Source: Eledone cirrhosa
Lineage: Eukaryota
Direction: 5' to 3'
Length of the DNA: 64,000 nucleotides
Assembly: GCA_964016885.1 (NCBI GenBank)
Contig: OZ024741.1
Coordinates: forward strand, 368,280,001-368,344,000
The notes beneath the pieces are model-generated. The model was not told the DNA's origin. It searched no databases and saw only the letters and a list, made by a program, of their open reading frames with translations. Positions within the stretch are counted from its first letter, which is position 1; each line of letters starts with the position of its first letter. This document shows, one piece after another, positions 1,337 through 64,000 of the stretch. Position numbers and translations under genes: made by a program.

Positions 1337-2150
1337 TATATATATATATATATATATATATATATATATACATACATATATGTATACATACATACATATA
1401 TATATATACATATATGTATACATACATACATATATATATATACATACATATATATATATATACATACATATATATATATATATACATACATATATATACA
1501 TATATATATATACATACATATATATACATACATATATATACATACATATATATATATATATACATACATACATATATATACATATATACATACATATATA
1601 TATATACATACATATATATATATACATATATATATATACATATATATATACATACATATACATATATATATATACATACATATATATACATATATATATA
1701 CATACATATACATATATATATATACATACATATATATACATACATATATATATATATACATATATATATATACATATACACATATATATATATACATATA
1801 TATATATATATATACATACATATATATACATATACACATATATATATATACATATATATATATATATATATACATACATATATATACATATACACATATA
1901 TATATATACATATATATATATATATATACATATATATATATATACATATATATATATATACATATACATATATATACATATACATATATATACATATACA
2001 TATATATATACATATACATATATATACATATACATATATATATACATATACATATATACATATATATACATATACATATATATATACATATACATATATA
2101 CATATATATATATATACATATACATATACATATATATATATACATATATA
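1337..2150. repeat. Interrupted (TA)n microsatellite, CA-type on + strand
   Basis: TA repeats interrupted by CA (tatacata). Confidence 0.97.
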
Positions 2151-4164
2151 TAACTTTGAAATGTTTTGGCCAGTATTGGCCCAGGCCATGTCTAACTTAA
2201 TAGCACCACCTGGCGAAGTCTTTCAATTCAGGATTTGGGCACCATGGCCCATTCGAGAAGAGAATTACTGTTTGCGGAGACATATCCGGGTGTGGGTGGT
2301 TTGTCCGGGATTACTTGGAGGAATTTGTCCAAAGACTTCTTGAATTTTGTGTGGTCAGTTTCTGTTTTGACGTGTCCTGGTGTGATGTTGAAGAGAGCAG
2401 GGCCGATTGAGGTGAAATAATTGTGCCGTATTGTTGTTATGAGTTGCGATTTAGATTTTTGAATGGGACGGATAGCACGGGGCCCAAGCCTTGGGTGTAT
2501 CTTGAAGGCGATGCCAACATCATTTGGGCAGTGATGATGGAACATTTTCCACATCATGCAGATAATATAACGCTCACGGCGACGTTGGAGTGAGTAAAGT
2601 TTCAGGTTTTCTAATCGACCCCAGTAGTCAAGGTCTGACATGCCATCTATCTTTTTCATGATTGCCCTTTGAGGAGCTTCAAGTTTCATGATACTTTGTT
2701 TCGTGTGGGGAGACCACAGTGGACAACAGTATTCAAGGTGTGGTCGGGCAAAAGTAGAGAAGAGAAGGATAATGGTGCGGGAATCTCTCGACTGGAAGGT
2801 TCTGAGGATCCAGGAACACATTCTGCGGGCCATGTCAACTTTGCTGCTTATATGCGTGGTCCAGCTTATGTTGCTGTCCACGGTTACTCCCAAGTCTCTG
2901 ATGTTGTTAGATGCCACGAGAGTTTCCCCGGAGGGAAGGGAGTACGGGAGTTTCAGAGCATCCTCTTTTCCAAAGTGGATCAGTTCGAATTTGTCTTCGT
3001 TCAGTAACATGTTGTTCTTTTCTGCCCATTGGGTAACAGCCAGTAGGTCTGACTGAAGGCTTATCCGGTCATACACGCCATTGATGACCTTTTGGAGCTT
3101 GGAATCATCAGCGAAAATTTTAATGTTGCTGTGTTTGATGATGTCAGTGATGTCATTAATATAGATGATGAAGAGAAGTGGGCCCAACACAGTGCCTTGT
3201 GGGACCCCACTACTGACTTTGGCTGGGCTTGATTTGACTCCCTCAACTACAACATGTTGGGTTCTGTTTGACAGGAAGCTCTTGATCCACTGCAGCAGCT
3301 TTCCAGTGACACCAATATTGGACAGCTTTCTCAGTAGAATGTTATGATCAACCCTGTCAAAGGCCTTGCTGAAATCAAGGTAGATAACATCAGTGTTGGA
3401 ACCCTCTCCCAAGGCTCTCAAAATGTCATCAAAGTGATGCAGTAGCTGCGTCAGGCAATCCCTTCCATTACGGAATCCATGCTGGTTGGAGTTCAGCATA
3501 TTGTTACTCTCAAGGAAGTGGGTCATTCGCGATCTCACCACTCGCTCAAATACCTTAATGATATGAGAGGTGAGTGAGATTGGACGGTAATTCACGGCAA
3601 GGGATTTGTTTCCCTTTTTGAAAATTGGGACAACAGACTGGGATAGAAGGTTTTCTGGCACATATCCAGCATCCAGTGAGTTCCGCCACAGATTGGCAAG
3701 AGGAGATGCAAGTTGGTGTTGACACGCCTTCAAGACACAAGCAAGGAACCTATCGGGACCTACTGCTGAATTATACTTGATTTCCTTTATTGGCGCCAAG
3801 ACATCAGGGGCGCCAAACGTTATGTCTGATAAGGTGTAATGGGGAGTAACATCGCCGATACAGCCCAGATCGGCCATATCAGGATTGCTGAAAACAGAGC
3901 AGTATTGTTTCTGCAGTATCTCACCCATGGTTTTAGCATTGTCTTGAAGAGTGCCATTTTCATCAATTAGAGGGCCAACAGTAGAGCCAGTGATTTTGTG
4001 TTTTTTTGCAAATGAAAAGAACACTTTGGGATTGAGTTTGATCTTCTCAATGGCCCAGGCCTCTTCAGCTCTTCTCTGATTGTTGATGAGGGACATTATG
4101 TTGTTTTGGAGGTTATGTTTTTTAATCTCTAGTGATGAAATGGCAGTCAAGTTATTCAAAGTTA
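2151..4164 (-). mobile_element. 5'-truncated CR1-group LINE with (TTCAAAGTTA)n tail
   Basis: RT motifs in ORF 2228..5077; 3' end matches second copy at 26778-27030. Confidence 0.9.
2228..4148 (-). CDS. CR1-group LINE reverse transcriptase, 5'-truncated but open
   Basis: [65 protein letters not shown]. Confidence 0.9.
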
Positions 4165-63979: not shown

Positions 63980-64000
63980 ATATATATATATATATATATA

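Follow-up and report, generated by a model that had tools for sequence, protein, structure and literature searches.

Strand-polarised TA tracts in a retroelement nest of Eledone cirrhosa: probable founder amplification and, separately, probable repeat addition at Hydra-clade junctions

Introduction

Why should the interruptions in kilobases of TA microsatellite lie almost entirely on one strand? The question is raised by a 64,000-nucleotide (nt) stretch of Eledone cirrhosa DNA (assembly GCA_964016885.1, contig OZ024741.1, positions 368,280,001 to 368,344,000), part of a 3.0-Gb assembly and referred to here as the window. It holds 27 TA-rich alternating tracts that total 24,008 of the 64,000 bases and are spaced by pieces of retroelements. 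A first-pass annotation proposed that these tracts had been extended by the reverse transcriptases (RTs) of resident elements, which would add (TA)nTG units by telomerase-like stuttering. Penelope-like elements (PLEs) have RTs that form telomerase's sister group, and the hallmark of telomerase is to add repeats by realigning on a short internal template. We find that the polarity is real yet that of an ordinary interrupted microsatellite, and the telomere-type reading of it fails. It is highly probable that the polarised tracts are a founder-amplified microsatellite nest cut by retroelements and that, separately, a family of the Hydra clade of PLEs has extra 7- and 9-nt junction units, which are likely products of reiterative reverse transcription.

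Results

Twenty adjacent 10-kb stretches were fetched around the window, giving 264 kb in all. The nest begins at 1337 and ends near 135,600 (window numbering), i.e. it spans at least 114 kb, of which the window is the left part, and its inserts number several dozen; the 100 kb to the left of the window contain just four tracts of 41-53 bp each. From 1337 to an assembly gap of 200 N, 935 of 1,029 TG/CA dinucleotides in tracts are CA (94 TG), and right of the gap, within the window, 1,028 of 1,108 are TG (80 CA). From the gap to the nest end, TG is in the majority in 52 of 56 tracts (2,306 TG against 210 CA). Symmetric point mutation would mix both types, as the first-pass annotation had argued: in 200 simulated draws of 240 independent symmetric mutations, the majority type reached at most 61%. 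Its remark that the interruptions mostly preserve the purine/pyrimidine alternation is equally borne out, with 159 breaking steps left of the gap and 58 right of it. Of the left-side breaks, 140 fall gap-ward in 14787-21141 (98 in 18632-21141), a stretch that looks like low-quality consensus. One-sidedness over kilobases holds overall, and its exceptions occur as blocks of the opposite type: TG at 4163-4472 on the left, CA at 26702-26770 and 27400-27778 on the right, and CA at 110,080-110,418 in the TG domain beyond the window. The flip itself sits at the 200-N gap (21339-21538), the sole gap in the 264 kb. Across this gap, whose 200 N need not reflect its true size, the two halves could be a single tract with an inversion, two separate nests, or a mis-join.

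We then surveyed the 108 arrays that reach 150 bp in loci L001-L140, with the nest excluded. In 88 of them the top word lies on one strand in 80% or more of its occurrences. That word is a single TG/CA in 69 arrays and of the TT/AA type in 22, the rest including ACAGT, ACTT and a 26-nt unit; 13 different top words occur overall, and 39 of the 108 arrays have one other than single TG/CA. Of 43 pairs of adjacent arrays, 32 have one word in one orientation on both sides (random expectation, 23%) and 4 have different words. Pairs with a word other than TG/CA match across RTE, short interspersed nuclear element (SINE) or Hydra inserts in 11 of 15 cases. Two sets of loci stand apart as observations in their own right: L028, L088 and L099, although distant from one another, are all polarised for the unusual word ACAGT, possibly a mobile minisatellite, and at L103 and L104 a 26-nt unit is amplified head-to-tail with variable (TA)n spacers, beside RTE ends.

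Within the nest, 11 of 29 tracts have a longest repeated unit string that is longer than in any of 30 shuffles, chiefly the long ones (13 against at most 6 at 41539-45942; 10 against 5 at 11824-14607). Rare words cluster locally, such as TGGATGT at 43976, 44028 and 44126. The modal n varies among nest tracts, and their spacers range from n = 0 to 47. Introns offered tracts that had not been picked for any element: 8 of 15 are polarised where both flanks are unmatched in a 1.6-Mb library (an unmatched flank does not prove a tract element-free), and 7 of 13 where repeats lie on both sides. One flank-unmatched intronic tract of 1,781 bp counts 206 against 0. In a toy model that combines strand-neutral symmetric mutation with local duplication, polarity arises without any template.

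The course that we propose would begin with one TA-to-TG mutation in a young TA run. This founder would be copied by slippage or unequal exchange of blocks of 8-14 nt and longer, 2-nt slippage would vary n, and new founders would give the blocks of minority polarity. The instability of long pure TA would keep the interruptions in place, and dozens of TA-targeting retroelements would then split the tract. Interruptions are known to slow slippage, and mutability tracks the longest pure run (PMC13147528). A founder variant plus oriented insertion was what the first-pass annotation had itself offered as the simpler alternative, and it came through every test that was run: word sharing, unit strings, blocks, and the flanks of a 610-bp element described below.

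Several observations weigh against founder amplification. The toy model misses the narrow density of interruptions (0.085-0.253 per unit across 30 tracts, against 0.005-0.42 in the model at its best setting), and under neutral settings the founder is lost or the density range is too wide; a stabilising force therefore had to be assumed. Seven of the 43 neighbouring pairs have opposite polarity, and 18 of the 29 nest tracts do not exceed their shuffles. The presumed order, tract first and insert later, is read from the concordance of flanks. Myosin introns show a TG excess on the sense strand, with 35 tracts against 12. Finally, Hydra ends lie mostly in pure TA, so insertion may itself lengthen pure TA, by analogy with TAFTA elements of maize (PMC5907723).

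The stutter at element junctions has to be considered apart from the tracts, beginning with the identity of the elements. The label Naiad, given in the first-pass annotation to elements A and B, was rejected: the GIY-YIG endonuclease motifs lie after the RT in P0001-P0003, not N-terminally, and in place of the Naiad DKA motif there is DKT in P0001 and in the open reading frame (ORF) of locus L001. By their motifs, the elements are Hydra-clade PLEs instead. By eye, a single cysteine stands between the motif halves in P0001-P0003, i.e. a C-terminal GIY-YIG without CCHH, and all three carry a CxCX5C linker. Hydra ends insert into (TA)n in the fetched loci and listed matches. A C-terminal GIY-YIG without CCHH, DKT, the CxCx5C linker and (TA)n insertion characterise the Hydra clade (Craig et al. 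2021, PMC8557442), and a fold-back with a tail adds to the likeness. RWR is found in L001 and L013 where Hydra RWK would be expected, and Pfam gave no match to the Hydra ORFs. Both loci continue from the tail of the window's so-called hammerhead element into an ORF with RWR (in L001 with DKT as well); the hammerhead element is thus, as its continuations indicate, the pseudo-long terminal repeat (pLTR) end of another Hydra family. This family is very young, with 40 copies 100% identical over 289 bp. In its hammerhead-like motif stem II folds and the core is a variant; an Rfam search of 39850-41535 gave no match, and across the full 64,000 nt the only hits were microRNA families spuriously aligned to TA tracts. 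At 37300-37461 lies a related family's insert that consists of the tail only, with TA on both sides and 79% identity to 41378-41528.

The window's copy of the hammerhead family has a left arm at 39845-40241 that recurs inverted at 40957-41371, followed by a tail at 41378-41538. CATATA at 41372-41377 marks the start of the inverted arm, which fits the internal initiation plus tail of PLEs (PMC11167929); the first-pass annotation described both this hexamer and the left arm, ...tatatgTATGaaat at 39845, correctly. The window copy has no extra unit at its priming junction. Other copies were found by pattern searches, and those listed, here and for the families below, are the first on contig C1 (C1 and C2 for the pattern with 7-19-nt units), a non-random sample; all stutter counts come from this one assembly. 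Contigs from four sequencing runs aligned to 39845-40250 also contain the element, and they gave no information on the bases preceding its first letter. Of the first 100 matches listed, out of 1,088 in the genome, two are internal sites; extra units are present at 25 of the remaining 98, and imperfectly at one more (by eye, cross-checked). The extra units are TGAAATA or TGAAATATA only; they adjoin the target and never stand behind the element tail. A pattern allowing units of 7-19 nt gave 207 reverse-strand matches against 573 ends (222 forward, double stutters counted twice), and the first 100 matches listed contain no unit of 11-19 nt, only 7s and 9s. At 26 fetched loci there are 40 units (9 nt long in 30 cases, 7 nt in 10), present in one, two, three and four copies at 17, 5, 3 and 1 loci, respectively. 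All 26 stutter junctions adjoin TA target, with flanks that are TG in 2, CA in 8, mixed in 11 and pure in 5. About a quarter to a third of junctions are affected, and 7-36 nt are added, not kilobases.

Enumerating realignments on the template at 41363-41377 with four paired bases yields units of 7 and 9 nt only. The target 3' end, ...TATA, would pair with CAUAUA inside the RNA, the enzyme would copy TGAAATA(TA), and the new end would realign on the same UAUA; each further cycle would have a chance of roughly 0.3, until processive copying sets in. Hydra-A, whose template has no inner repeat, shows extra units at 0 of 100 listed ends (by eye). We regard the 7-/9-nt stutter as probably a product of reiterative reverse transcription, which is favoured over DNA slippage because unit length is bounded, the chance per round is about constant, and the units occur at junctions only. 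It is also likely, if with somewhat more reserve, that a living, endonuclease-bearing PLE performs telomerase-type repeat addition on an internal template of 1.5 units, adding up to four repeats before it copies the element. The kilobase tracts are not its product. Reiterative reverse transcription, as put forward in the first-pass annotation, would survive in a narrower, different form at the predicted priming site of other copies and fall for the tracts. At one hammerhead-family tail end among 30 (L009), a short stretch of the final bases is duplicated ahead of the TA tract, a hint that the tail end can stutter too.

For these units the most serious competitor is DNA slippage after insertion, acting on the TATA of the target and the inner TATA repeat. 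We consider it unlikely, though it has to be taken seriously: this genome duplicates any interruption inside TA tracts, the TATA-TGAAA-TATA microhomology is present in the DNA as in the RNA and lies beside an unstable tract, and Hydra-A lacks that microhomology too, which makes it an imperfect control for the template. However, the (TA)n registers would also give units of 11, 13 and more nt, and all 40 units are of 7 or 9 nt, with none longer among the matches listed; the same microhomology inside the element is never stuttered (0/26); and the family is very young. Reiterative reverse transcription remains our preferred reading of the units.

Turning to the tracts, elements might carry pieces of them along, by 3' transduction or ectopic copying, and so seed and locally flip the polarity. 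Two CR1 3' ends 24 kb apart, at 2083-2393 and 26702-27030 on opposite sides of the gap, have CA flanks with spacers of 7, 15, 5, 5, 13, 9 and 7, 15, 5, 13, 9, and end and flank seem to have been copied together. Loci L055 and L058, on different contigs, have tandem copies of the 610-bp element joined by an identical 30-nt tract linker, with the same rearranged second copy, which suggests tract transduction. However, unit strings common to different nest tracts are not above shuffles (3 against a mean of 0.39 and a maximum of 4), which led us to reject homogenisation between separate nest tracts and indicates that carriage is occasional and not the rule. As an account of the polarity it is improbable.

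We give still less credence to a transcription- or replication-linked A-to-G asymmetry that would yield regional TG regardless of tract ancestry. It would explain the myosin excess, which is also seen when tracts are clustered (21 against 9) or counted by gene (6 against 1, with 4 ties), but kinesin introns show 18 against 16 tracts, 13 against 13 clusters and 4 against 5 genes. Polarised TT, AA, ACTT and ACAGT words would be left unexplained, and no host gene turned up around the nest, although no search aimed at one was made. A small transcription-linked founder bias is compatible with founder amplification, which does not need a link to transcription. Long (CA)n runs on the sense strand of the myosin introns (L171-L210) number 124 against 22, and kinesin introns show this only weakly (28 against 18).

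Telomerase-like addition of (TA)nTG by element RTs, which would fix the polarity as the tract grows, is very improbable. Some of what was said for it is correct. The first-pass annotation's list of families followed in sense by TG holds within the window, stutter units do occur at the priming site of the hammerhead family, and the CA blocks at 26702-26770 and 110,080-110,418 adjoin element ends. However, CAUAUA does not serve as a template for the tract units: realignment on 41363-41377 with at least two paired bases allows no (TA)nTG unit. The model is also inconsistent in strand, as a CAUAUA template would put TG on the complementary DNA strand, and the element would then be followed by CA in sense, not TG. 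Polarity was next compared with element orientation. Within the nest, 18 RTE-type tails are followed in sense by TG in 7 cases, CA in 9 and mixed tract in 2. Elsewhere, none of the four families compared is biased toward TG. Hammerhead-family tail ends (n = 30) are followed by pure TA in 13 cases, TG in 6, CA in 5, mixed tract in 2 and no tract in 4; Hydra-A tail ends (n = 30) by pure TA in 12, TG in 4, CA in 8 (3 of them solely via an abutting RTE tail), mixed tract in 5 and none in 1; and RTE ends (n = 30) by TG in 5, CA in 5, mixed tract in 9, pure TA in 3 and no tract in 8. CR1 ends, judged by eye among 100 listed, have about 32 sense-TG and 41 sense-CA flanks. Beyond the window the list therefore fails except for the 610-bp element, and other tracts are polarised for words that no element end encodes.

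Even the 610-bp element does not support tail synthesis. Its other copies have TG downstream in 19 of 29 cases (CA in 1) and upstream in 21 of 29 (CA in 1), and it is flanked by pure TA where the target is pure, which argues for oriented insertion into existing (TATG)n/(TA)nTG. It is the only family that inserts oriented; Hydra, CR1 and RTE land either way, as would the SINE, with the SINE and Hydra-B ends represented by just a few copies in the fetched loci. The element is young and non-coding, its 3' end is fixed, and copies may be 5'-truncated or inverted; a genome search gave 604 candidates. Pure TA also adjoins the Hydra-A priming ends in most of 100 listed and 7 of 9 tract-flanked ends of the Penelope element at 7057. 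Long pure TA is found beside Hydra ends (e.g. 28866, 31888) more often than beside CR1 ends, whether through a preference for pure runs or through expansion of pure TA on insertion. RTE 3' ends listed at about 7.4-11.8 Mb of contig C1 are mostly on one strand, and the genome totals are even (5,774 against 5,630).

An assembly artefact is the least credible source of the polarity and could explain the flip only, since, for all that the flip lies at the 200-N gap with 98 alternation breaks on the way to it, zero-break tracts are equally polarised, polarised arrays occur on many contigs, and the 264 kb contain no second gap.

The features of the window are collected in Table 1. RTE, CR1 and the long terminal repeat (LTR)-retrotransposon pol fragment are named from Pfam, tail type and general clade features, and these names are presumptive.

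Table 1. Tracts and elements of the window, with the basis of each assignment (LINE, long interspersed nuclear element).
Feature	Position	Strand	Basis
CA-type (TA)n tract pieces, nine, one of them (4163-4472) TG-type	1337..21206	.	935 CA vs 94 TG
CR1-type LINE, 5'-truncated	2153..4162	-	Pfam/ends
Penelope-like element with C-terminal endonuclease, plus LTR-retrotransposon pol fragment	7057..11642	-	Pfam
Second 610-bp element, 5' inversion, in CA domain	15827..16443	-	sequence
RTE-type LINE, (GAT)n tail	16981..18631	-	tail type
200-N assembly gap, polarity flip	21339..21538	.	sequence
TG-type (TA)n tract pieces; nest goes on to ~135,600	21562..64000	.	dinucleotide counts
RTE-type LINE, PHD finger and (GAT)n tail	22005..24283	-	Pfam, tail
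610-bp non-coding element, TG/(TATG)n-oriented on both flanks genome-wide	25706..26315	+	flanks of other copies
CR1 3' fragment; CA flank shares spacer string with flank at 2153	26780..27030	-	spacer comparison
Mini copy of Hydra-A, two ends only	28866..28977	+	sequence
Hydra-A fold-back ('Naiad-A'), ORF 33667-35565; priming end 31888, tail end 36849	31888..36849	+	ORF motifs
RTE fragment	37755..39276	-	sequence
Hammerhead Hydra family fold-back insertion, presumptive pLTR piece of coding Hydra element	39845..41538	+	loci L001, L013
Minimal type I hammerhead-like motif, variant core	41286..41338	+	visual inspection; no match in Rfam
Putative template with alignment region at internal priming site; candidate source of 7-/9-nt units at other copies	41363..41377	+	inferred mechanism
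Hydra-B ('Naiad-B'), partial tandem and inverted piece	45943..51778	-	ORF motifs
SINE with RTE-type 3' tail	52007..52348	+	tail type
Young RTE-type LINE	52423..54667	-	Pfam
Hydra-C with inverted pLTR piece	55648..58373	+	ORF motifs
RTE pieces, both orientations	58453..61078	.	sequence
Young RTE-type LINE	61184..63977	-	sequence

Discussion

Both processes have relatives among known systems. At the start of reverse transcription the eel LINE UnaL2 undergoes template slippage on (UGUAA)n, which has been called reminiscent of telomerase (PMC1636434). In the present genome, CR1 has 1-3 copies of its 10-nt end and RTE a variable (GAT)n tail, and the Hydra stutter resembles all three in that a short RNA repeat would be recopied at initiation. 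It differs from the LINEs in that the putative Hydra template lies internally, some 160 nt ahead of where the tail ends, and consists of about 1.5 units and not of a tandem tail, and in that the Hydra RT belongs to the clade closest to telomerase. With telomerase the predicted Hydra mechanism shares a short template with a repeated end that permits realignment, and template-bounded units (PMC4993307). Unlike telomerase, Hydra would perform at most four rounds and then copy processively, at interior sites and with no separate RNA. The Poseidon PLE of Anolis (Frangieh et al. 2024) is similar in having ends with and without the tail, initiation inside the RNA, and AT-rich targets (PMC11167929). 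However, it starts at a site without homology to the target, and the main text and opening methods of that paper mention no reiteration, whereas the Hydra start is complementary to (TA)n.

The nest has its own counterparts. In guayule and rice SaTar and in maize TAFTA, unrelated elements are strung on TA microsatellites and their flanks can expand on insertion, but these are plant DNA transposons in clusters of a few kb, and here retroelements extend over more than 100 kb (PMC5907723). Interruptions lower slippage in human microsatellites alike, yet those loci are far shorter, and the available part of that study covers no kilobase arrays of a single interruption (PMC13147528). In the main text of the Hydra-clade paper we found no repeat addition or slippage at junctions (PMC8557442). 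Nor did we find a description of repeat addition at PLE junctions in the literature searched, most subscription papers and the supplements lying outside that search. The available parts of a retrozyme preprint (10.64898/2026.07.22.740005) and of a paper on Octopus vulgaris repeats (PMC13282606) hold nothing on tract polarity.

Initiation slippage is already known in LINEs, which limits the surprise; the new part is likely the bounded repeat addition by a Hydra-clade element, as slippage in LINEs and chains of elements on TA microsatellites have been described before. The nest illustrates how a microsatellite of more than 100 kb could come to repeat one mutation throughout, and how TA-targeting elements build giant nests. 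The hammerhead Hydra family, being young and having several hundred junctions with 7-/9-nt rounds, provides a sequence-defined substrate for testing repeat addition outside telomerase. If our reading of these junctions is true, the family would occupy, in nature, the ground between the priming of retrotransposons and telomerase, and it would offer an in vitro system that is ready to use.

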